Below, piece after piece: positions 1 through 58,171 of a DNA stretch of 64,000 bases. Each line of letters starts with the position of its first letter. Within the stretch, counting starts at the first letter, position 1. The DNA is from Escherichia coli (GTDB lineage: Bacteria > Pseudomonadota > Gammaproteobacteria > Enterobacterales > Enterobacteriaceae). Location of the stretch: the NCBI RefSeq assembly GCF_003018255.1, contig NZ_CP027440.1, one strand, 5' to 3'. A program made the translations under genes and the position numbers. The notes beneath the pieces are model-generated. The model was not told where the DNA came from and did no database searches. It was given only the letters and a program-made list of their open reading frames with translations.

Positions 1-3279
<3,279 letters not shown>

Positions 3280-3288
3280 TTTGCAACG

Positions 3289-3376
<88 letters not shown>

Positions 3377-3477
3377 TACCACCGGGCGTATTCTTTTTGA
3401 ATCCCATCACAAACCCCGCACTCCCCTTTTCCCTTTTCTCTGGCGACAGCTAAATTAGAACTCATCCGACCACATAA

Positions 3478-5523
<2,046 letters not shown>

Positions 5524-5536
5524 ATCGTTATTTGAA

Positions 5537-5562
5537 GCGCCGGATGCAACGCATCCGGCACG
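5537..5562. terminator. Palindromic hairpin between convergent fadH and higA
   Basis: gcgccggatgcaacgcatccggcac inverted repeat. Confidence 0.5.
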
Positions 5563-5567
5563 TCGCG

Positions 5568-5984
5568 TTAATCAATAAACAAGGCGGGAGAAATGCCGAA
5601 TCGCGTTGCCAATTTTTTAGCGTGTTCCAGCGTTAATTTCCTCTTCCCGCTCAAAACGCGTGACACCATCGATTTACTGCCAATTTCCGGAAGATCGGAA
5701 AGGGTTAAACCATATTGATCCATAAGGGTACGAATCACAGCTATACCGCCAGGCATGGCTTGCGCCATGGCATTAAATTCAGCAAATTCGGGCGCTGATT
5801 CTTCCCACGCGGTTATTTTGGCACACACCAGATCCAGCAAGGGGTTTTCAGGATCGTTGAGCAGCAGATGATCTACCAGTTCCAGCGCCTGGGTGTATTG
5901 TTCCTCGTTCTGAATACCCGCCAGAAAAGGTGCCACAGCAGTTAACTTTTCTCCTGCTTGCAAGATGTCGGCAATCGCAATCAT
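5568..5984 (-). CDS. higA: Antitoxin HigA (Xre-family HTH)
   Basis: 138-aa ORF; C-terminal HTH region (LTLEHAKKLATRFGISPALF); start overlaps stop of upstream higB remnant (ATGA). Confidence 0.9.
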   Translation of the reverse strand: MIAIADILQAGEKLTAVAPFLAGIQNEEQYTQALELVDHLLLNDPENPLLDLVCAKITAWEESAPEFAEFNAMAQAMPGGIAVIRTLMDQYGLTLSDLPEIGSKSMVSRVLSGKRKLTLEHAKKLATRFGISPALFID

Positions 5985-11052: not shown

Positions 11053-11144
11053 TTCGCTGTATATTAAGCCATTACTAGAGATAACTCATTCCAGACAAAG
11101 GTGAGCTATTAATTATGTAATCGGCTTATAGCTCTTTACAAAAA

Positions 11145-11390
11145 GACCGCACGGGTGTTGGTGGCGTCAAAATCGCCGAAGCGTTCCCTGGAGGCCGGGG
11201 CGACGCGCATGGATGCGCGGCGAGGGCGCATCTTACAGGGACGTTCCCTTGCGCCCGACCCGGTAGCCGCAAGGGATAAGCTGAGGGAACCGCGCAGCGG
11301 CGATTTTGTTCGCCAGAGCCTGGGGGTGCAGGGGGCGGCGGCGATTGGCCGCCCCCTGCGCGCTCCCTGCGCCAGTGGCTTTATATGGCA
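11145..11390. repeat. GC-rich palindromic intergenic element of unknown identity
   Basis: Inverted arms ggcgtcaaaatcgccgaagcg / cgcagcggcgattttgttcgcc; internal palindromes gcgcatggatgcgc and gttccctg...cagggacgttccc; local GC far above flanks. Confidence 0.4.
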
Positions 11391-11667
11391 TAGCACATTA
11401 AAGGAGCGCAACCGTTCTCATATTCCAAATAGTTTTGCCCATATGTTATCTAATCAGCCTTAGTAGCCAGTCCTTCCCTCTGTTTATGTCAAATAAATGT
11501 AACCATTAAGTTGCAAAATATGACCTCTCTTTAAAATCCAGCATTTTTCGCTTCCCGAAGCTGTAACTTTCCTTATACTCGACCTTGCAAACACTTTGTT
11601 ACATCCTGAAAGATGCGTCGACAGAACGCACCAAGGATGTGCGACAACACAATGAAAGGATCGAAAA

Positions 11668-12912
11668 ATGACTACGCAACGTTCACCGGGGCTATTCCGG
11701 CGTCTGGCTCATGGCAGCCTGGTAAAACAAATCCTGGTCGGCCTTGTTCTGGGGATTCTTCTGGCATGGATCTCAAAACCCGCGGCGGAAGCTGTTGGTC
11801 TGTTAGGTACTTTGTTCGTCGGCGCACTGAAAGCCGTTGCCCCCATCCTGGTGTTGATGCTGGTAATGGCATCTATTGCTAACCACCAGCACGGGCAGAA
11901 AACCAATATCCGCCCTATTTTGTTCCTCTATCTGCTGGGCACCTTCTCTGCTGCTCTGGCCGCAGTAATCTTCAGTTTTGCCTTCCCTTCTACCCTGCAC
12001 TTGTCCAGTAGCGCGGGTGATATTTCGCCGCCGTCAGGCATTGTAGAAGTAATGCGCGGGCTGGTAATGAGCATGGTTTCCAACCCCATTGACGCGCTGC
12101 TAAAAGGTAACTATATCGGGATCCTGGTGTGGGCAATTGGCCTCGGTTTCGCACTGCGTCACGGTAACGAGACCACCAAAAACCTGGTCAACGATATGTC
12201 GAATGCCGTCACCTTTATGGTGAAACTGGTGATTCGCTTCGCACCGATCGGTATTTTTGGTCTGGTTTCTTCTACCCTGGCAACCACCGGTTTCTCCACG
12301 CTGTGGGGCTACGCGCAACTGCTGGTCGTGCTGGTTGGCTGTATGCTGCTGGTGGCGCTGGTGGTTAACCCATTGCTGGTGTGGTGGAAAATTCGTCGTA
12401 ACCCGTTCCCGCTGGTGCTGCTGTGCCTGCGTGAAAGCGGTGTGTATGCCTTCTTCACCCGCAGCTCTGCAGCGAACATTCCGGTGAATATGGCGCTGTG
12501 TGAAAAGCTGAATCTGGATCGCGATACCTATTCTGTTTCTATTCCGCTGGGAGCCACCATCAATATGGCGGGCGCAGCAATCACCATTACCGTGTTGACG
12601 CTGGCTGCGGTTAATACGCTGGGTATTCCGGTCGATCTGCCCACAGCGCTGCTGTTGAGCGTAGTGGCTTCTCTGTGTGCCTGTGGCGCATCCGGCGTGG
12701 CGGGGGGGTCTCTGCTGCTGATCCCACTGGCCTGTAATATGTTCGGTATTTCGAACGATATCGCCATGCAGGTGGTTGCCGTCGGCTTTATCATCGGCGT
12801 ATTGCAGGACTCTTGCGAAACCGCGCTGAACTCTTCAACTGACGTGCTGTTCACTGCGGCAGCTTGCCAGGCGGAAGACGATCGTCTGGCAAATAGCGCC
12901 CTGCGTAATTAA
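11668..12912 (+). CDS. sstT: Serine/threonine:Na+ symporter
   Basis: 414-aa ORF, recognised SstT sequence. Confidence 0.95.
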
Positions 12913-46599: not shown

Positions 46600-46935
46600 A
46601 TGCCCGCTAATGCTCGCTCTAACGCTGTACTGACCACTGAATCAAAGGTCACTATACGCGGACAAACAACTATCCCCGCGCCAGTGCGTGAGGCCTTAAA
46701 ACTGAAGCCTGGCCTGGACAGCATTCATTACGAAATTCTGCCTGGTGGGCAAGTATTTATGTGCCGACTGGGAGATGAACAGGAGGATCATACTATGAAT
46801 GCATTTTTGCGTTTTCTGGATGCAGATATCCAGAACAACCCGCAAAAAACTCGTCCATTCGACATTCAACAAGGAAAGAAACTTGTCGCTGGCATGGACG
46901 TCAACATTGACGATGAGATTGGCGACGACGAATAA
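46600..46935 (+). CDS. prlF: Antitoxin PrlF (SohA), AbrB/SpoVT-type
   Basis: 111-aa ORF ending with acidic tail DDEIGDDE. Confidence 0.85.
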   Translation: MPANARSNAVLTTESKVTIRGQTTIPAPVREALKLKPGLDSIHYEILPGGQVFMCRLGDEQEDHTMNAFLRFLDADIQNNPQKTRPFDIQQGKKLVAGMDVNIDDEIGDDE

Positions 46936-47399
46936 TGGATTTTCCACAAAGGGTTAATGGTTGGGCGCTATATGCTCATCCCTGTTTTCAGGAAACCTAC
47001 GATGCTTTAGTTGCCGAAGTCGAGGCATTAAAGGGAAAAGATCCTGAAAATTATCAGAGAAAAGCTGCCACAAAGTTATTGGCGGTGGTCCATAAAGTGA
47101 TTGAGGAGCATATCACGGTCAATCCATCATCACCGGCATTCCGTCATGGCAAGTCGTTAGGCTCTGGGAAAAATAAAGACTGGTCACTGGTAAAATTTGG
47201 CGCTGGTCGCTATCGTCTCTTCTTTCGTTACAGTGAAAAAGAGAAAGTCATCATTCTGGGATGGATGAACGATGAAAACACGCTGCGCACCTACGGTAAA
47301 AAAACAGATGCCTATACCGTATTCAGTAAAATGTTAAAAAGAGGACATCCTCCTGCCGACTGGGAAAGCCTCACCCAAGAGACAGAAGAAAACCATTGA
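46935..47399 (+). CDS. yhaV: Toxin YhaV (ribonuclease)
   Basis: 154-aa ORF immediately adjacent to prlF. Confidence 0.85.
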   Translation: MDFPQRVNGWALYAHPCFQETYDALVAEVEALKGKDPENYQRKAATKLLAVVHKVIEEHITVNPSSPAFRHGKSLGSGKNKDWSLVKFGAGRYRLFFRYSEKEKVIILGWMNDENTLRTYGKKTDAYTVFSKMLKRGHPPADWESLTQETEENH

Positions 47400-49814: not shown

Positions 49815-50288
49815 ATGCCAAATATTGTTTTAAGCCGGATTGATGAACGCTTGATTCACGGTCAGGTTGGCGTTCAGTGGGTCGGATTTGCGGGGGCAAA
49901 TCTGGTGCTGGTAGCCAACGATGAGGTTGCCGAAGATCCGGTACAACAAAACCTGATGGAAATGGTACTGGCAGAAGGGATCGCCGTACGTTTCTGGACG
50001 CTGCAAAAAGTTATCGACAACATTCATCGCGCCGCCGATCGACAGAAAATCCTGCTGGTTTGTAAAACACCTGCCGATTTCCTGACGCTGGTGAAAGGTG
50101 GCGTTCCGGTGAATCGCATTAACGTTGGCAATATGCACTACGCCAATGGCAAGCAACAAATCGCCAAAACGGTTTCTGTAGATGCGGGCGATATCGCAGC
50201 ATTTAACGACCTGAAAGCCGCTGGAGTGGAATGCTTCGTTCAGGGCGTCCCGACAGAGCCTGCTGTGGACCTCTTTAAATTACTTTGA
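49815..50288 (+). CDS. agaV: PTS GalNAc-specific EIIB
   Basis: 157 aa from MPNIVLSRIDERLIHGQ. Confidence 0.85.
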   Translation: MPNIVLSRIDERLIHGQVGVQWVGFAGANLVLVANDEVAEDPVQQNLMEMVLAEGIAVRFWTLQKVIDNIHRAADRQKILLVCKTPADFLTLVKGGVPVNRINVGNMHYANGKQQIAKTVSVDAGDIAAFNDLKAAGVECFVQGVPTEPAVDLFKLL

Positions 50289-50298
50289 GGGATTCATC

Positions 50299-51078
50299 AT
50301 GGAAATCAGTCTGTTGCAGGCATTCGCGTTGGGCATTATCGCCTTTATCGCTGGCCTGGATATGTTTAACGGCCTAACCCATATGCACCGCCCGGTGGTC
50401 CTCGGCCCGTTGGTCGGGCTGGTACTTGGCGATCTGCATACCGGTATTTTAACCGGCGGTACGCTGGAACTGGTGTGGATGGGGCTGGCCCCGCTGGCGG
50501 GCGCACAGCCGCCTAACGTGATTATCGGTACTATCGTCGGCACGGCGTTTGCCATTACTACTGGCGTGAAACCCGATGTTGCAGTCGGTGTCGCCGTACC
50601 TTTCGCTGTCGCAGTACAGATGGGGATTACCTTCCTGTTCTCGGTGATGTCTGGCGTAATGTCCCGCTGTGACCGGATGGCAGAGAACGCCGATACACGC
50701 GGCATTGAACGCGTGAACTATCTGGCACTGCTGGCACTCGGCACTTTCTATTTTCTCTGCGCTTTCCTGCCTATCTACTTCGGCGCGGAACATGCAAAAA
50801 CCATCATTGATGTCCTACCGCAACGATTAATCGACGGCCTCGGCGTCGCGGGCGGCATCATGCCAGCAATCGGTTTTGCCGTGCTGCTGAAAATCATGAT
50901 GAAAAACGTCTACATCCCCTACTTCATCCTGGGCTTTGTTGCCGCAGCCTGGCTCAAGTTACCGGTGCTGGCTATTGCTGCCGCCGCGCTGGCGATGGCG
51001 CTGATCGACCTGCTGCGTAAATCTCCTGAACCGACTCAACCTGCGGCACAGAAAGAGGAATTTGAAGATGGCATCTAA
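50299..51078 (+). CDS. agaW: PTS GalNAc-specific EIIC (full length)
   Basis: 259-aa ORF. Confidence 0.85.
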   Translation: MEISLLQAFALGIIAFIAGLDMFNGLTHMHRPVVLGPLVGLVLGDLHTGILTGGTLELVWMGLAPLAGAQPPNVIIGTIVGTAFAITTGVKPDVAVGVAVPFAVAVQMGITFLFSVMSGVMSRCDRMAENADTRGIERVNYLALLALGTFYFLCAFLPIYFGAEHAKTIIDVLPQRLIDGLGVAGGIMPAIGFAVLLKIMMKNVYIPYFILGFVAAAWLKLPVLAIAAAALAMALIDLLRKSPEPTQPAAQKEEFEDGI

Positions 51079-51946
51079 TCAAACCACCCTGCCGAACGTC
51101 AGTGAAAACGAAGAAACACTGCTGACAGGCGTCAATGAAAACGTGTATGAAGATCAGAGCATTGGCGCAGAGCTGACGAAAAAAGATATCAACCGCGTCG
51201 CCTGGCGTTCCATGCTGTTACAAGCGTCTTTTAACTACGAACGTATGCAGGCTTCTGGCTGGTTGTACGGTCTGCTGCCTGCTCTGAAAAAGATCCACAC
51301 TAATAAACGCGACCTGGCGCGCGCCATGAAGGGGCATATGGGTTTCTTCAATACCCATCCGTTTCTGGTGACGTTTGTTATCGGCATTATCCTTGCGATG
51401 GAGCGTTCTAAGCAGGACGTTAACAGTATTCAGAGCACCAAAATTGCCGTCGGTGCGCCGCTCGGCGGGATTGGCGATGCGATGTTCTGGCTAACGCTAC
51501 TGCCGATTTGTGGCGGGATAGGCGCAAGCCTCGCGCTACAAGGCTCTATTCTTGGCGCAGTCGTCTTTATTGTGCTGTTCAACGTGGTACACCTGGGGCT
51601 GCGTTTTGGTCTGGCGCATTATGCTTACCGCATGGGCGTGGCGGCGATTCCACTCATTAAAGCGAATACCAAAAAAGTCGGCCATGCTGCGTCAATCGTT
51701 GGGATGACGGTAATCGGCGCGCTGGTGGCAACCTATGTTCGTTTAAGCACCACGCTGGAAATCACCGCTGGCGACGCAGTGGTTAAGTTACAGGCTGATG
51801 TTATCGACAAACTGATGCCAGCCTTCTTACCGCTGGTCTACACCCTGACCATGTTCTGGCTGGTACGCCGCGGCTGGAGTCCGCTGCGCCTGATTGCAGT
51901 GACCGTGGTTCTCGGCATCGTCGGTAAATTCTGCCATTTCCTTTAA
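51068..51946 (+). CDS. agaE: PTS GalNAc-specific EIID
   Basis: Start MASNQ overlapping agaW end by 11 nt, same architecture as agaC/agaD. Confidence 0.8.
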   Translation: MASNQTTLPNVSENEETLLTGVNENVYEDQSIGAELTKKDINRVAWRSMLLQASFNYERMQASGWLYGLLPALKKIHTNKRDLARAMKGHMGFFNTHPFLVTFVIGIILAMERSKQDVNSIQSTKIAVGAPLGGIGDAMFWLTLLPICGGIGASLALQGSILGAVVFIVLFNVVHLGLRFGLAHYAYRMGVAAIPLIKANTKKVGHAASIVGMTVIGALVATYVRLSTTLEITAGDAVVKLQADVIDKLMPAFLPLVYTLTMFWLVRRGWSPLRLIAVTVVLGIVGKFCHFL

Positions 51947-51963
51947 ATACAATGAGGTATTAG

Positions 51964-52398
51964 ATGTTAAGTATTATTTTGACAGGGCATGGCGGGTTTG
52001 CCAGTGGCATGGAAAAAGCAATGAAGCAAATCCTCGGCGAGCAATCGCAGTTTATTGCCATCGATTTTCCGGAAACCTCAAGCACCGCGCTGCTTACATC
52101 GCAGCTTGAAGAGGCCATCGCCCAACTGGATTGTGAAGACGGCATTGTTTTTCTGACGGATTTGCTGGGCGGCACGCCGTTTCGCGTAGCTTCAACGCTG
52201 GCGATGCAAAAACTGGGCTGTGAAGTGATTACCGGCACCAATTTGCAACTGCTACTGGAGATGGTGCTGGAGCGCGAAGGGTTAAGCGGTGAAGAGTTTC
52301 GTGTGCAGGCGCTGGAGTGTGGACATCGTGGGCTGACCAGTCTGGTGGACGAGTTAGGCCGCTGCCATGAGGAATGTCCGGTCGAGGAAGGAATATGA
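51964..52398 (+). CDS. agaF: PTS GalNAc/GalN EIIA
   Basis: 144-aa ORF. Confidence 0.8.
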   Translation: MLSIILTGHGGFASGMEKAMKQILGEQSQFIAIDFPETSSTALLTSQLEEAIAQLDCEDGIVFLTDLLGGTPFRVASTLAMQKLGCEVITGTNLQLLLEMVLEREGLSGEEFRVQALECGHRGLTSLVDELGRCHEECPVEEGI

Positions 52399-53528
52399 CA
52401 CCCGTTTTGCGCGCCAGAAGGCTGCTGACTGAAGAGGGATGGCTCGATGACCATCAGTTGCGTATTGCTGACGGTGTAATCGCAGAAATCGAACCGATTC
52501 CAGTGGGCGTGACTGAACGCGATGCGGAACTGCTCTGCCCCGCTTACATCGACACCCATGTACACGGTGGTGCGGGCGTTGATGTAATGGATGACGCGCT
52601 GGATGTGCTCGACAAGCTGGCAATGCACAAAGCACGCGAAGGTGTCGGCAGTTGGTTACCGACCACCGTAACCGCGCCGCTTAATACCATTCATGCGGCG
52701 CTGGAACGTATTGCTCAACGTTGCCAACGCGGCGGACCTGGTGCACAAATACTGGGGAGTTATCTCGAAGGACCGTACTTCACGCCGCAGAATAAAGGCG
52801 CGCATCCGCCGGAGCTGTTTCGCGAGCTGGAAATTGCCGAGCTGGATCAATTGATTGCCGTTTCTCAGCACACCTTGCGCGTGGTGGCGCTGGCACCGGA
52901 AAAAGAAGGGGCATTGCAGGCCATCCGCCATCTTAAACAGCAAAACGTAAGGGTGATGCTGGGGCATAGCGCGGCGACCTGGCAACAAACCCGCGCCGCG
53001 TTTGATGCTGGTGCCGACGGCCTGGTGCATTGCTATAACGGGATGACAGGTTTACATCACCGCGAACCGGGAATGGTTGGCGCGGGATTAACGGACAAGC
53101 GCGCCTGGCTGGAACTGATAGCCGATGGTCATCATGTGCATCCGGCGGCGATGTCGCTGTGTTGTTGCTGTGCGAAAGAGAGAATCGTGCTGATCACCGA
53201 CGCGATGCAGGCAGCCGGGATGCCGGATGGTCGCTATACGTTATGTGGCGAAGAAGTGCAGATGCACGGTGGCGTTGTCCGTACCGCGTCCGGTGGGCTG
53301 GCGGGCAGTACGCTGTCTGTTGATGCGGCAGTGCGCAACATGGTTGAGTTGGCGGGTGTAACGCCTGCGGAAGCCATCCATATGGCATCGCTGCATCCGG
53401 CGCGTATGCTGGGTGTTGATGATGTTCTGGGATCGCTTAAACCGGGCAAACGCGCCAGCGTCGTTGCGCTGGATAGCGGGCTGCATGTGCAACAAATCTG
53501 GATTCAGGGTCAATTAGCTTCGTTTTGA
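52395..53528 (+). CDS. agaA: N-acetylgalactosamine-6-phosphate deacetylase (full length)
   Basis: ATG at 52395 overlapping agaF stop; 377 aa; metal-binding HVHGG motif. Confidence 0.85.
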   Translation: MTPVLRARRLLTEEGWLDDHQLRIADGVIAEIEPIPVGVTERDAELLCPAYIDTHVHGGAGVDVMDDALDVLDKLAMHKAREGVGSWLPTTVTAPLNTIHAALERIAQRCQRGGPGAQILGSYLEGPYFTPQNKGAHPPELFRELEIAELDQLIAVSQHTLRVVALAPEKEGALQAIRHLKQQNVRVMLGHSAATWQQTRAAFDAGADGLVHCYNGMTGLHHREPGMVGAGLTDKRAWLELIADGHHVHPAAMSLCCCCAKERIVLITDAMQAAGMPDGRYTLCGEEVQMHGGVVRTASGGLAGSTLSVDAAVRNMVELAGVTPAEAIHMASLHPARMLGVDDVLGSLKPGKRASVVALDSGLHVQQIWIQGQLASF

Positions 53529-53603
53529 TGGTTTGCTCCTTTATTGGGCCTTCACTTCCCCCGTAAGGCCTTTCTTTTTCTTTCGTTTTGATCTGTGCAG
53601 CGG

Positions 53604-53687
53604 TGTCGGATGCGACGCTAATGCGCCTTATCCGACCTACGGTTGGTGACCGTAAGGCCGGATAAAGTATTTACGCCGCATCCAGCA
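53604..53687. repeat. REP/BIME palindromic repeats
   Basis: gtgtcggatgcgacgctaatgcgccttatccgacctacgg and gtaaggccggataaagtatttacgccgcatccagc. Confidence 0.8.
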
Positions 53688-53734
53688 ATCCCTTTTACTT
53701 CCCTTGTCTTTTCTTTCAACGATCACAGATTTCG

Positions 53735-53840
53735 TTTTATTTCCTTTTTCTCCATTGAACTTTCAGTTTCTTTTCTATAGATTTTAACCAACGAAAGAAA
53801 TCACCAAGTGAAATGAAACGAAAGGCAAACGAAAGCGACA
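53735..53840 (+). promoter_or_regulatory. agaS promoter with AgaR operator repeats
   Basis: tttcgttttatttcc, aactttcagtttctttt, gaaatgaaacgaaaggcaaacgaaagcg repeats. Confidence 0.55.
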
Positions 53841-53877
53841 ACGCCGACGTCAAGTTCATCAGACTAAGGATTGAGTT

Positions 53878-55032
53878 ATGCCAGAAAATTACACCCCTGC
53901 TGCTGCCGCAACCGATACATGGACTGAAGAAGAGATCCGCCATCAGCCTCGCGCATGGATCCGTTCACTCACCAACATCGACGCGCTACGTTCCGCGCTC
54001 AATAACTTCCTTGAACCGTTACTGCGCAAAGAGAATCTGCAAATCATCCTGACCGGAGCCGGAACCTCGGCATTTATCGGTGACATCATCGCGCCGTGGC
54101 TCGCCAGTCATACCGGTAAAAACTTCAGCGCCGTACCGACCACCGATCTGGTCACTAATCCGATGGACTACCTGAATCCAGCTCATCCGCTGCTGTTGAT
54201 CTCCTTCGGTCGATCCGGCAACAGCCCGGAAAGCGTCGCTGCCGTGGAACTGGCAAATCAATTTGTACCCGAGTGCTATCACCTGCCGATCACCTGCAAC
54301 GAAGCGGGCGCTCTTTACCAAAACGCGATCAACAGCGACAACGCGTTTGCCCTACTGATGCCCGCAGAAACGCACGACCGCGGCTTTGCGATGACCAGCA
54401 GCATTACCACCATGATGGCCAGTTGCCTCGCGGTTTTCGCACCTGAGACGATCAACAGCCAGAGCTTCCGCGACGTGGCGGATCGTTGCCAGGCGATCCT
54501 GACCTCACTGGGCGATTTCAGCGAAGGTGTGTTTGGTTACGCACCGTGGAAACGGATCGTTTATCTCGGCAGCGGTGGCTTACAGGGCGCAGCACGCGAG
54601 TCGGCGCTGAAAGTGCTGGAACTGACAGCGGGTAAACTGGCGGCCTTCTATGATTCCCCGACCGGATTCCGTCATGGCCCGAAATCGCTGGTCGATAACG
54701 AAACGCTGGTGGTGGTATTTGTCTCCAGCCACCCTTACACCCGTCAGTATGATCTTGATCTGCTGGCAGAACTCCGCCGCGATAACCAGGCAATGCGCGT
54801 AATCGCCATCGCCGCGGAAAGCAATGACGTTATTACTGCCGGTCCACATATCATCCTGCCGCCGTCCCGTCACTTTATCGACGTTGAGCAGGCATTTTGC
54901 TTCCTGATGTACGCCCAGACATTTGCACTGATGCAGTCGCTGCACATGGGTAATACACCGGATACCCCATCAGCCAGTGGCACCGTTAACCGCGTGGTGC
55001 AAGGCGTAATCATTCATCCGTGGCAGGCATAA
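53878..55032 (+). CDS. agaS: Galactosamine-6-phosphate deaminase/isomerase (SIS domains)
   Basis: 384-aa ORF. Confidence 0.9.
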   Translation: MPENYTPAAAATDTWTEEEIRHQPRAWIRSLTNIDALRSALNNFLEPLLRKENLQIILTGAGTSAFIGDIIAPWLASHTGKNFSAVPTTDLVTNPMDYLNPAHPLLLISFGRSGNSPESVAAVELANQFVPECYHLPITCNEAGALYQNAINSDNAFALLMPAETHDRGFAMTSSITTMMASCLAVFAPETINSQSFRDVADRCQAILTSLGDFSEGVFGYAPWKRIVYLGSGGLQGAARESALKVLELTAGKLAAFYDSPTGFRHGPKSLVDNETLVVVFVSSHPYTRQYDLDLLAELRRDNQAMRVIAIAAESNDVITAGPHIILPPSRHFIDVEQAFCFLMYAQTFALMQSLHMGNTPDTPSASGTVNRVVQGVIIHPWQA

Positions 55033-55905
<873 letters not shown>

Positions 55906-56071
55906 TCATTAGTTTTTTATGATTTATCCCAATGTACTTCCCGATTAATATCGGGGAGTGCCTTAATGGTAAAGGAGATAACTAAACCTTAATAAATACA
56001 TCAGTACAATATCGCAACAATAATATATTTAAAAAGATTATATTATTCAACTTTATGGTGAGGATCACACA

Positions 56072-56548
56072 ATGAGCAGTCCAAATATTCTCTTAACCCG
56101 TATTGATAACCGTCTGGTTCACGGTCAGGTTGGCGTGACCTGGACATCCACCATCGGTGCGAATCTGTTGGTAGTCGTGGATGATGTTGTCGCTAACGAT
56201 GATATTCAACAGAAATTAATGGGTATTACCGCAGAAACCTACGGCTTTGGCATTCGTTTCTTTACTATCGAAAAAACCATTAACGTCATCGGCAAAGCTG
56301 CACCACATCAGAAGATCTTCCTGATTTGCCGTACGCCACAAACGGTACGTAAATTGGTAGAAGGTGGTATTGACCTGAAAGATGTCAACGTCGGCAATAT
56401 GCATTTCTCGGAAGGGAAAAAGCAAATCAGCAGTAAAGTTTATGTCGATGACCAGGATCTCACGGACTTACGTTTTATTAAACAACGTGGCGTGAATGTT
56501 TTCATTCAGGACGTCCCTGGCGATCAAAAAGAACAAATCCCTGACTAA
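56072..56548 (+). CDS. agaB: PTS GalN-specific EIIB
   Basis: 158-aa ORF, paralog of agaV. Confidence 0.9.
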   Translation: MSSPNILLTRIDNRLVHGQVGVTWTSTIGANLLVVVDDVVANDDIQQKLMGITAETYGFGIRFFTIEKTINVIGKAAPHQKIFLICRTPQTVRKLVEGGIDLKDVNVGNMHFSEGKKQISSKVYVDDQDLTDLRFIKQRGVNVFIQDVPGDQKEQIPD

Positions 56549-56586
56549 ATCTAAAATCGCCTTAATATTGGTTTGAGGTAATAAAA

Positions 56587-57390
56587 ATGCATGAAATAAC
56601 CCTACTCCAGGGATTATCCCTGGCGGCGTTAGTTTTCTTTCTGGGGATTGATTTTTGGCTGGAAGCCTTATTTTTATTCCGCCCGATAATCGTTTGTACC
56701 CTTACAGGTGCTATTCTCGGTGATATTCAGACTGGCTTAATTACCGGTGGCCTGACAGAGTTGGCTTTCGCCGGATTAACCCCTGCAGGTGGTGTTCAGC
56801 CGCCCAACCCTATTATGGCGGGTCTGATGACCACTGTCATTGCATGGTCTACGGGCGTTGATGCCAAAACGGCAATTGGTCTTGGCCTGCCGTTTAGTTT
56901 GTTAATGCAGTACGTCATTCTGTTCTTCTATTCCGCTTTCTCATTATTTATGACCAAAGCCGATAAATGCGCAAAAGAGGCGGATACGGCAGCGTTTTCC
57001 CGACTTAACTGGACAACGATGCTCATCGTCGCTTCAGCGTATGCGGTGATTGCTTTCCTCTGTACTTACCTGGCACAGGGGGCGATGCAGGCGCTGGTGA
57101 AAGCGATGCCCGCCTGGCTGACCCACGGCTTTGAAGTGGCTGGCGGTATTCTGCCTGCCGTTGGTTTTGGCTTGCTGCTGCGCGTGATGTTCAAAGCGCA
57201 ATATATCCCTTACCTGATCGCCGGTTTCCTGTTTGTTTGCTACATCCAGGTCAGCAACCTGTTGCCGGTTGCCGTGCTGGGCGCAGGCTTTGCGGTGTAT
57301 GAGTTTTTCAATGCGAAATCCCGGCAGCAAGCGCAACCGCAGCCCGTTGCCAGTAAAAATGAAGAAGAGGACTACAGCAATGGGATCTGA
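56587..57390 (+). CDS. agaC: PTS GalN-specific EIIC
   Basis: 267-aa ORF, paralog of agaW. Confidence 0.9.
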   Translation: MHEITLLQGLSLAALVFFLGIDFWLEALFLFRPIIVCTLTGAILGDIQTGLITGGLTELAFAGLTPAGGVQPPNPIMAGLMTTVIAWSTGVDAKTAIGLGLPFSLLMQYVILFFYSAFSLFMTKADKCAKEADTAAFSRLNWTTMLIVASAYAVIAFLCTYLAQGAMQALVKAMPAWLTHGFEVAGGILPAVGFGLLLRVMFKAQYIPYLIAGFLFVCYIQVSNLLPVAVLGAGFAVYEFFNAKSRQQAQPQPVASKNEEEDYSNGI

Positions 57391-58171
57391 AATCAGTAAA
57401 AAAGATATCACCCGTCTGGGCTTTCGTTCGTCACTGCTACAAGCAAGCTTTAACTACGAAAGGATGCAGGCGGGCGGTTTTACCTGGGCGATGTTGCCGA
57501 TCCTGAAAAAGATTTATAAGGACGACAAACCGGGCCTAAGCGCGGCGATGAAAGATAACCTCGAATTTATTAATACCCACCCTAATCTGGTCGGATTCCT
57601 GATGGGGTTATTAATTTCGATGGAAGAAAAAGGAGAAAACCGCGACACCATTAAAGGCCTCAAAGTAGCACTGTTTGGCCCAATCGCCGGGATTGGCGAT
57701 GCGATTTTCTGGTTCACTTTGTTGCCGATTATGGCGGGGATTTGCTCATCGTTTGCCAGTCAGGGAAACCTGCTGGGGCCGATTCTATTTTTCGCCGTTT
57801 ACCTGCTTATCTTTTTCCTGCGCGTCGGCTGGACCCACGTCGGTTATTCAGTCGGCGTGAAGGCGATCGATAAAGTGCGAGAGAACTCGCAGATGATTGC
57901 CCGTTCGGCAACCATCCTCGGGATCACAGTAATCGGCGGGCTGATCGCTTCGTATGTGCATATTAACGTGGTGACATCGTTTGCCATCGACAGTACCCAC
58001 AGCGTCGCGCTGCAGCAGGATTTCTTCGATAAAGTCTTCCCGAATATTTTACCGATGGCCTACACCCTGCTGATGTATTACTTCCTGCGGGTAAAAAAAG
58101 CGCATCCGGTGCTGTTAATCGGCGTGACGTTTGTTCTTTCTATTGTTTGTTCTGCATTCGGCATTTTGTAA
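57380..58171 (+). CDS. agaD: PTS GalN-specific EIID
   Basis: 263 aa from MGSEISKKDITRLGF; 11-nt overlap with agaC. Confidence 0.9.
   Translation: MGSEISKKDITRLGFRSSLLQASFNYERMQAGGFTWAMLPILKKIYKDDKPGLSAAMKDNLEFINTHPNLVGFLMGLLISMEEKGENRDTIKGLKVALFGPIAGIGDAIFWFTLLPIMAGICSSFASQGNLLGPILFFAVYLLIFFLRVGWTHVGYSVGVKAIDKVRENSQMIARSATILGITVIGGLIASYVHINVVTSFAIDSTHSVALQQDFFDKVFPNILPMAYTLLMYYFLRVKKAHPVLLIGVTFVLSIVCSAFGIL

Follow-up and report, generated by a model that had tools for sequence, protein, structure and literature searches.

In the 64,000-nucleotide (nt) stretch of Escherichia coli contig NZ_CP027440.1 analysed here (the window), two paralogous phosphotransferase system (PTS) modules of the aga/kba cluster, agaW/agaE and agaC/agaD, each join the gene of the membrane component IIC to that of the component IID by an overlap of 11 nt. 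The two overlaps are probably homologous copies of one ancestral IIC-to-IID junction, that of the branch for N-acetylgalactosamine (GalNAc) and galactosamine (GalN), a reading that includes presumed translational coupling of IIC and IID and a functional Gly-Ile (GI) tail of IIC.

Two overlapping junctions and their relatives

The GalNAc module contains agaW (IIC; 50299..51078, plus strand) and agaE (IID; 51068..51946, plus strand). AgaW ends in ...KEEFEDGI, with the last codons GAT GGC ATC TAA (D-G-I-stop) and the stop TAA at 51076-51078, and the ATG of agaE at 51068 opens a product beginning with MASNQ. In the GalN module, agaC (IIC; 56587..57390, plus strand) ends in ...NEEEDYSNGI with AAT GGG ATC TGA (N-G-I-stop; TGA at 57388-57390), and agaD (IID; 57380..58171, plus strand) starts with the ATG at 57380, its product beginning with MGSEISKK. 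The shared segments, ATGGCATCTAA at 51068..51078 and ATGGGATCTGA at 57380..57390, both on the plus strand, are 11 nt long and dual-coding, being read as D-G-I-stop and N-G-I-stop in the IIC frame and as M-A-S-N and M-G-S-E in the IID frame, which is +1 relative to the IIC frame in both pairs. The same two overlaps are found in the RefSeq annotation of a 99.2%-identical E. coli genome (agaW 4001-4780/agaE 4770-5648 and agaC 10289-11092/agaD 11082-11873 in the coordinates of that genome). The sequence-only reading had described both IIC genes as ending in GI-stop with the IID start 11 nt back in the +1 frame, and the products as starting with MASNQ and MGSEISKK; the sequence and the RefSeq starts agree with it on each point.

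Profile comparison assigns AgaW and AgaC to IIC and AgaE and AgaD to IID of the mannose/fructose/sorbose PTS family. AgaW scored 410.8 bits against the NCBIfam equivalog model NF040757 (curated cutoff 300), AgaC scored 405.4 bits against NF007289 (cutoff 300) and 408.9 bits against TIGR00822 (cutoff 339.85), AgaE scored 617.6 bits against NF040760 (cutoff 500) with residues 1-292 matching profile positions 1-292 end to end, and AgaD scored 456.5 bits against NF007359 (cutoff 400).

Each IID start is preceded by the same Shine-Dalgarno (SD)-like hexamer AGAGGA with an 8-nt spacer to the ATG, located in the Lys-Glu-Glu codons of the AgaW tail for agaE (51054..51059, plus strand) and in the Glu-Glu-Asp codons of the AgaC tail for agaD (57366..57371, plus strand). 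Ungapped comparison of the junctions, an alignment proposed in the sequence-only reading, showed 16 of 25 identical positions in the block from the SD site to the stop, with AAGAGGA at 7/7, followed by the 8-nt spacer, and the overlap at 9/11, against 5 of 29 (17%) in the flanks. This likeness beyond chance is attributed to homology of the junctions, as the same block recurs in 56/56 dereplicated relatives. Nothing like these two was found among the other junctions of the aga cluster, which are gaps of 0-38 nt and the ATGA of agaF/agaA.

A different start for agaE or agaD would undo the overlap, and the alternative starts lack conservation. For agaE, TTG at 51062 is replaced by TTC in Lelliottia, is not conserved in enterobacterial orthologues and has an SD spacing of only 3 nt, and for agaD, ATG at 57359 has no SD site and is missing or displaced in Phytobacter, Enterobacter and Lelliottia. 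Downstream in-frame IID starts carry an SD-like site in only 2 of the 48 dereplicated loci with a locatable NYERM anchor, and none of them is conserved.

The two modules have diverged widely, with 36% identity between AgaW and AgaC and 45% between AgaE and AgaD. AgaD residue 1 pairs with AgaE residue 32 (MGSEISKKDI versus IGAELTKKDI), as AgaE has 31 extra residues between its start and the conserved IID core relative to AgaD, and the start codons are therefore not equivalent relative to this core. Either an ancestral junction was retained while the linker changed in length, or two overlaps arose independently, and data from outside E. coli were needed to decide between the two.

One genome per species was scanned and the best 80 AgaD-like loci, 49-100% identical, were taken, representing Enterobacterales, Jeongeupia (Betaproteobacteria), Clostridia, Lucifera (Negativicutes), Bacilli, Erysipelotrichia, Atopobium and Coriobacteriaceae (Actinobacteria) and metagenome-assembled genomes (MAGs) labelled Tenericutes. 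Because the scan gave only these best 80 AgaD-like loci, AgaE-like and outgroup pairs were added from second systems in the loci, 12 annotated plasmid regions and the K-12 manXYZ region. Tblastn located 105 IIC-IID pairs in all, of which 73 were left after dropping pairs with more than 90% IID identity.

IIC ends in Gly-Ile-stop in 56 of the 73 dereplicated pairs, which span Proteobacteria, Clostridia, Bacilli, Erysipelotrichia, Negativicutes and Actinobacteria. With the first base of the IIC stop as position 0, the block GG-N-ATC-TRR of this GalNAc/GalN branch has G at -6, G at -5, A at -3 and T at -2 in 56/56 each and C at -1 in 54/56, while the third base of the Gly codon is not fixed (A 26, C 26, G 3, T 1). 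An IID-frame start lies 11, 14 or 17 nt before the end of the IIC stop in all 56 pairs, with ATG or GTG at the 11-nt overlap in 35 of them, and an SD core of at least 4 nt is located 6-12 nt upstream of such a start in 52/56; G is invariant at -21 and nearly so at -18. The ATG of the 11-nt overlap sits in GAT/AAT-GGN, and lineages with Glu-Gly-Ile start one codon further upstream, resulting in 14-nt junctions that read ATG/GTG-AAG-GNA-TCT or ATG-TCG-GAA-TCT.

The distance from the IIC stop to the IID NYERM motif takes 20 different values between 61 and 154 nt, a spread of 93 nt. Since the junction stays fixed while the N-terminal linker of IID gains and loses codons, the discrepancy between AgaE and AgaD is resolved toward an ancestral junction, and what is conserved appears to be the junction itself, with a linker of varying codon number behind it. 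Apparent pseudogene variants were met in two loci: agaD of E. albertii NBRC 107761 (L033) is frameshifted just past an intact junction, and the IIC end is broken in a Clostridiales MAG (L036).

Simple neighbour-joining trees with 100 bootstraps were built for IIC and IID separately, and in the full-data trees both modules fall into one clade with the other family members outside, with moderate bootstrap. Bootstrap support is 100% in both trees for the AgaC/D-like subclade, 66% (IID) and 82% (IIC) for the GI clade with L085, an E. coli plasmid system beside a GH88 hydrolase, included, and 59% (IID) and 6% (IIC, where L085 nests inside) for the AgaE-like subclade. E. coli AgaD joins Jeongeupia and Lucifera in a clade made up mostly of Firmicutes, far from AgaE, and is 65-75% identical to clostridial and betaproteobacterial AgaD versus 45% to its own AgaE. 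These comparisons support a very old split of AgaW/E and AgaC/D rather than an in-situ event in E. coli, with a duplication that would predate the spread of both modules across phyla. AgaD-like and AgaE-like IIC/IID modules also lie 2-4.5 kb apart in single loci of Lachnospiraceae (L023, L024), Lactococcus fujiensis (L051) and an uncultured bacterium (L054), so the two-module arrangement is no enterobacterial peculiarity.

The mannose- and sorbose-type outgroups have IIC/IID gaps, of 12 nt in E. coli manY/manZ, 11-13 nt in sorbose-type systems and 17-21 nt, with an own SD site, in Firmicute mannose-type systems; one E. faecium system has TAATG, a 1-nt overlap. The systems nearest to the GI clade overlap, namely L085 by 11 nt (ATGATCTCTAA; IIC ends in ...DL), the two sigma-54/SIS-linked enterococcal systems L087 and L089 by 11 or 17 nt (IIC ends in ...DF) and the Bacillus GH88-linked system L092 by 8 nt, and as all these overlaps are 3n+2 long, they share the frame relation of the aga junctions. 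Two clostridial systems of a mannose/sorbose-like subfamily, L011 (~2897-4540, Caloramator quimbayensis) and L021 (near 10751, Clostridium guangxiense), are in-frame IIC-IID fusions; such natural fusions show that IIC and IID can be joined C-terminus to N-terminus, and they fit a strict 1:1 requirement.

The sequence-only reading had regarded the overlap as a conserved feature of an ancient duplication, to be followed up by phylogeny of the IIC and IID components. This is supported as far as the junction is concerned, by the 56/56 relatives, by trees that place both junctions in one GI-stop clade and by the gap-type outgroups. It has to be qualified in that the IID starts are not equivalent relative to the core, and conservation would be active, through a C-terminal motif of IIC, and not passive.

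Constraint in two frames and the shared tail of IIA and IIC

The bases of the overlap allow the demands of the two frames to be separated. The third Gly base is synonymous in IIC and decides whether IID residue 2 is Glu, Ala, Gly or Val; in the 14-nt junctions the first G of GGN is synonymous in IID and still invariant, which argues that the Gly-Ile of IIC is selected. The Ile codon is ATC in 54/56 pairs versus 33% ATC elsewhere in the same genes (P ~8e-32, lineages taken as independent), and GGT encodes the junction Gly in 1/56 versus 34% of the Gly codons at other positions of those genes. Read in the IID frame, ATC yields Ser (TCT), ATT would yield Phe and ATA Tyr, and GGT would yield Val. 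Both reading frames appear to constrain the overlap, Gly-Ile being held by IIC and the choice of ATC and the rarity of GGT by IID. The distant overlapping systems also end in NTC-TAA (CTC, TTC), which fits either an IID preference or an RNA-level effect at the stop. The SD site likewise seems to shape the Gly/Glu/Asp composition of the IIC tail, whose residues -10 to -3 are 21% G, 20% D and 18% E. Pairing of GGNAUCU with ribosomal RNA was considered by eye only; the block resembles the 3' tail of 16S rRNA instead of complementing it, and the only variant that pairs with the 790 loop, GGU, is the rarest.

The GI ending is shared with IIA. The single IIA of both modules, AgaF (51964..52398, plus strand), ends in ...PVEEGI-stop according to annotation and tail comparison. 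GI is the end of IIA in 58 of the 69 IIA genes of the fetched loci, and in dereplicated loci with a linked IIA, a GI-ending IIC is accompanied by a GI-ending IIA in 34 of 35, the remaining one having GL; the C-terminal tails of IIB in the fetched loci show no conservation. Codon usage for the terminal Ile of IIA is ordinary (mostly ATT, with some ATC and ATA) and the sequence after the IIA stop varies, with no fixed overlap, so GI is conserved at the protein level. A search with AgaF over 1.84 billion cluster representatives, each standing for one 50%-identity cluster, found 116 near-full-length IIA representatives, 72 of which have the GI end, the GI being usually preceded by Asp, Glu, Gly or Asn and by an acidic stretch. 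In IIC, the terminal motif is [D/E/N/S]-G-I in 56/56 members of the clade.

IIA and IIC are unrelated folds, yet their tails are alike within a locus. Examples are (IIC/IIA) DGDDNDGI/VDDNEDGI in L083, GEDEEDGI/DGEEEDGI in L054 and GEDFSNGI/DLDFENGI in L053, as well as the non-acidic pairs REVRSSGI/KQVSSNGI in L065 and REARSHGI/KKHTSTGI in L077. The two tails also co-vary between subfamilies, IIA with ...NDGL accompanying IIC with ...HDDL, ...EEEF or ...EEDF accompanying ...DDDDF or ...DEDF, ...EEDDF accompanying ...EEEEDL, and ...ALDE accompanying ...MGDE. Co-variation of this kind (GI/GI, GL/DL, EF/DF, DF/DL, DE/DE) was observed in the plasmid loci L083-L092 and in L010, L065 and L077, and no such co-variation was found for the IIB and IID termini of the same loci.

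In sequence, this is what a docking tail would look like: a motif that is invariant at the very end of a flexible and otherwise variable tail and that is kept in the protein whatever the nucleotide context. AgaF residues 2-127, the globular IIA, align with the IIA domain of ManX, and the AgaF tail starts where ManX has its covalent IIA-IIB linker. IIB was chosen as the modelled partner because it must meet both IIA and IIC/IID. For AlphaFold2, the 16 C-terminal residues of AgaC were fused to AgaB through a (GGGGS)x5 linker, and the 58 rows of the alignment each combined the IIB and the IIC tail of one operon. The predicted local distance difference test (pLDDT) was above 90 for IIB and below 50 for the linker, values below 50 being restricted to residues 160-192, and it reached at least 70 for the last seven residues (EDYSNGI), with a mean of 70 for the last block. 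With every tail reversed, residues 160-199 were all below 50, with a mean of ~37. This suggests that the predictor places the true tail on IIB in a sequence-specific manner, the values being confidence values of a single-chain fusion and not proof of binding.

It is tentatively proposed, from these comparisons and the model, that the acidic Gly-Ile tail (Asp/Glu-Phe and Asp-Leu in sister subfamilies) might be an undescribed docking motif on IIA and IIC of systems with split IIA and IIB. Both tails might capture the same IIB site, replacing the covalent linker of the ManX type and handing IIB between donor and transporter, and conservation of the overlap might then be a side effect of the fixed IIC stop. 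A comparable case is the C-terminal tip of SSB (...DDDIPF), an acidic docking tail that recruits many partner proteins. Shared features are a flexible acidic tail, an invariant hydrophobic last residue, a free carboxylate, a variable linker and a common partner. The likeness is a functional analogy only, with [D/E/N/S]-G-I (D/E-F and D-L in sister subfamilies) as the motif and IIB as a predicted partner.

The end of agaF, GAA GGA ATA TGA (E-G-I-stop; 52387-52398), has the ATG of agaA nested in ATA-TGA, the two genes overlapping by the 4-nt ATGA at 52395..52398 (plus strand; sequence and annotation). The agaA start is thereby a second start codon of the aga operon built into a Gly-Ile-stop tail, here with ATA as the Ile codon. 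ATA is a rare Ile codon in E. coli. The corresponding end in Lelliottia is GGG ATC TAA, whose Ile and stop codons contain no ATG.

Proposed coupling across the junction and rival explanations

The two gene pairs have the sequence features of coupled pairs, the IID start overlapping the IIC stop and the SD site lying inside the IIC coding region. A ribosome ending IIC, or a 30S subunit held by the SD site, would restart 5-8 nt upstream on IID by termination-reinitiation, and the SD site, 12-14 nt upstream of the P-site codon, would keep the terminating ribosome near. IIC and IID of the obligate heteromer would in this way be made from the same mRNA in matched amounts. The IIC stop would be immobile because the acidic tail ending in Gly-Ile is a functional protein motif, whose likeliest role would be that of a docking tail for free IIB shuttling between IIA and IIC/IID, and the constraint of the IID frame, in which Ser TCT forces ATC, would also hold the overlapped bases. 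The functional Gly-Ile terminus and this IID-frame constraint would explain why a longer and rarer overlap stayed fixed.

Termination-reinitiation at overlapping stop and start codons has been described by Huber et al. 2019 and 2023 (PMC6728339, PMC10666635). The efficiency of reinitiation drops steeply with distance, and short overlaps are enriched among subunits of heteromeric complexes; 30.4% of E. coli gene pairs between 8 nt overlapping and 10 nt apart encode complex subunits, compared with 6.8% of those more than 20 nt apart (PMC10666635). ManYZ is a trimer of IIC-IID protomers (PMC8021565). Among unidirectional overlaps, ~45% are 4 nt and ~15% are 1 nt long (PMC3887535).

Several points weigh against this reading. 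The proposed dependence of AgaE and AgaD translation on that of AgaW and AgaC is read from sequence. A hairpin hiding the IID start was sought in 41-nt and 71-nt windows at both junctions and rejected, as they folded no better than shuffled sequences (z = +0.2 to +1.0); the junction RNA is unstructured (z = +1.0 and +0.3) and the SD sites are good, so independent initiation of IID is possible. As the start drifts among 11, 14 and 17 nt, selection does not act on the exact length of the overlap. The P value for ATC assumes independent lineages, the sample is biased to the best AgaD matches and contains only 8 dereplicated AgaE-like and 17 outgroup pairs, and support for monophyly of the GI clade is moderate, at 51-82%, in simple neighbour-joining trees. 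The suggested docking to IIB draws on tail co-variation and single-chain AlphaFold confidence only, and the partner of the tail could instead be IID, or the tail could serve stability or assembly.

The overlap could also be a passive by-product, IID being initiated from its own SD site without coupling and the overlap persisting only through selection on the Gly-Ile of IIC and use of the nearest start. This explanation, which we consider unlikely, draws on the strong SD cores at normal spacing, the absence of RNA structure occluding the IID start and the drift of the start, and on the selection of GI at the protein level in IIA, where it needs no overlap. It accounts poorly for the near fixation of ATC and for a start within the last 17 nt of IIC in 56/56 lineages, although the indel-rich linker of 61-154 nt could supply a downstream start, as is the case in the mannose and sorbose systems; short overlaps, moreover, generally go with coupling and heteromeric complexes (PMC10666635). 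Independent gain of two 11-nt overlaps after divergence of the modules would agree with the non-equivalent starts (AgaD residue 1 at AgaE residue 32) and with the general distribution of overlaps in genomes, where 11-nt overlaps do arise by chance (PMC3887535). Such convergence or chance resemblance is nevertheless highly improbable: GG-N-ATC-TRR with an overlapping start is found in all dereplicated members of the two subclades, which span several phyla, the sister system L085 has an 11-nt overlap as well, and the two E. coli junctions share the SD hexamer and the 8-nt spacer, with flanks that agree at only 17%.

A programmed +1 frameshift at AUC-UAA/UGA, by which some ribosomes would skip one base and make an IIC-IID fusion beside the separate subunits, is hardly credible, even though IID is read in the +1 frame relative to IIC and the sequence around the stop varies unusually little. 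The aga junction does resemble the arrangement of prfB, in which a stop in the A site is combined with an upstream SD site, and the in-frame fusions L011 and L021 of other subfamilies indicate that a fused protein can function. However, by sequence inspection tRNA-Ile cannot re-pair on UCU after a +1 shift, the SD site lies 12-14 nt from the P-site codon versus ~3 nt in prfB, and a genuine start codon with an SD site is present in 52-56 of the 56 lineages. The AgaC-AgaD fusions in databases do not speak for frameshifting either. The entries P0002, P0006 and P0015, which carry both domains, are internal deletions or frameshift variants of E. coli agaC-agaD and were rejected as programmed fusions; P0015, found on 83 contigs, joins ...AQGAM of AgaC to KDNLEF... 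of AgaD.

Homologous junctions with coupled translation remain the preferred explanation, and they can be set against known systems. ManXYZ, Firmicute ManLMN and the sorbose systems have, like aga, homologous IIC (PF03609) and IID (PF03613) in an obligate heteromeric membrane complex, and they too have acidic IIC tails with a hydrophobic residue close to the C-terminus. They differ from aga in lacking the Gly-Ile ending and in having IIC/IID gaps of 11-21 nt with an own SD site; ManX and ManL have no free IIA tail because IIA and IIB are fused in one polypeptide. Known termination-reinitiation coupling at ATGA or TAATG, as in the trp and gal operons, likewise involves co-directional subunit genes with a start a few nt from the stop and an SD site in the upstream gene. 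In contrast to the 1- or 4-nt overlaps of those cases, the aga-type overlap is 11-17 nt long, so that at least three codons are read in two frames, both visibly constrained, and the coupling is here inferred from sequence.

Textbook knowledge already covers the aga operon, the two paralogous transporter modules in it and the annotated overlaps, and the overlap finding adds little. As the genes, the paralogy and the overlaps are annotated and coupling is ordinary, the finding as stated is already known. A literature search that lacked most subscription journals, including the original aga papers, found neither the fixation of the junction throughout the clade nor the Gly-Ile tail common to IIC and IIA previously described, and the shared tail, possibly an IIB-docking motif, is the only element that is possibly new. 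The junction offers a clean natural example of dual coding, in which the constraint of each frame is separable and which is fixed across phyla while the adjoining linker is free in length. The co-varying IIA/IIC tail placed on IIB by AlphaFold offers a simple idea of how split mannose-family systems may bring IIB to both partners. If true, the docking tail would matter to PTS biochemistry and to the engineering of amino-sugar uptake, and the broader picture would be unchanged.

The aga/kba cluster of the window

The complete E. coli aga/kba cluster for GalNAc and GalN occupies 47.4-58.9 kb of the window in the order agaR (minus strand), kbaZ, agaV, agaW, agaE, agaF, agaA, agaS, kbaY, agaB, agaC, agaD and agaI, and the order, the coordinates and the products agree with the RefSeq annotation of the matching genome. 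This complete form is that of E. coli C and O157. The IIB components, placed from the annotation and the open reading frame list, are encoded by agaV for the GalNAc module (49815..50288, plus strand) and by agaB for the GalN module (56072..56548, plus strand).

The 7.9 kb of 50299-58171 were matched by 5339 of 5426 complete E. coli genomes with a best identity of 99.2%, and at least 80% of the region was covered in 4872 of the 5426. Coverage was below 80% in ~10% of the genomes, which fits the known deletion of the K-12 type, from agaW to agaA. Identity of at least 99% was seen in only 71 of 5340 matching E. coli records, most lying at 95-99%, and the stretch may come from a less-sampled E. 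coli lineage.

The largest intergenic space of the cluster is a non-coding gap of 349 nt between agaA and agaS (53529-53877), which presumably holds an internal agaS promoter and operator. The open reading frame directly upstream of agaR (46935-47399) is annotated by RefSeq, in the matching genome, as YhaV, the toxin of the PrlF-YhaV toxin-antitoxin pair, and it is unrelated to the junctions.

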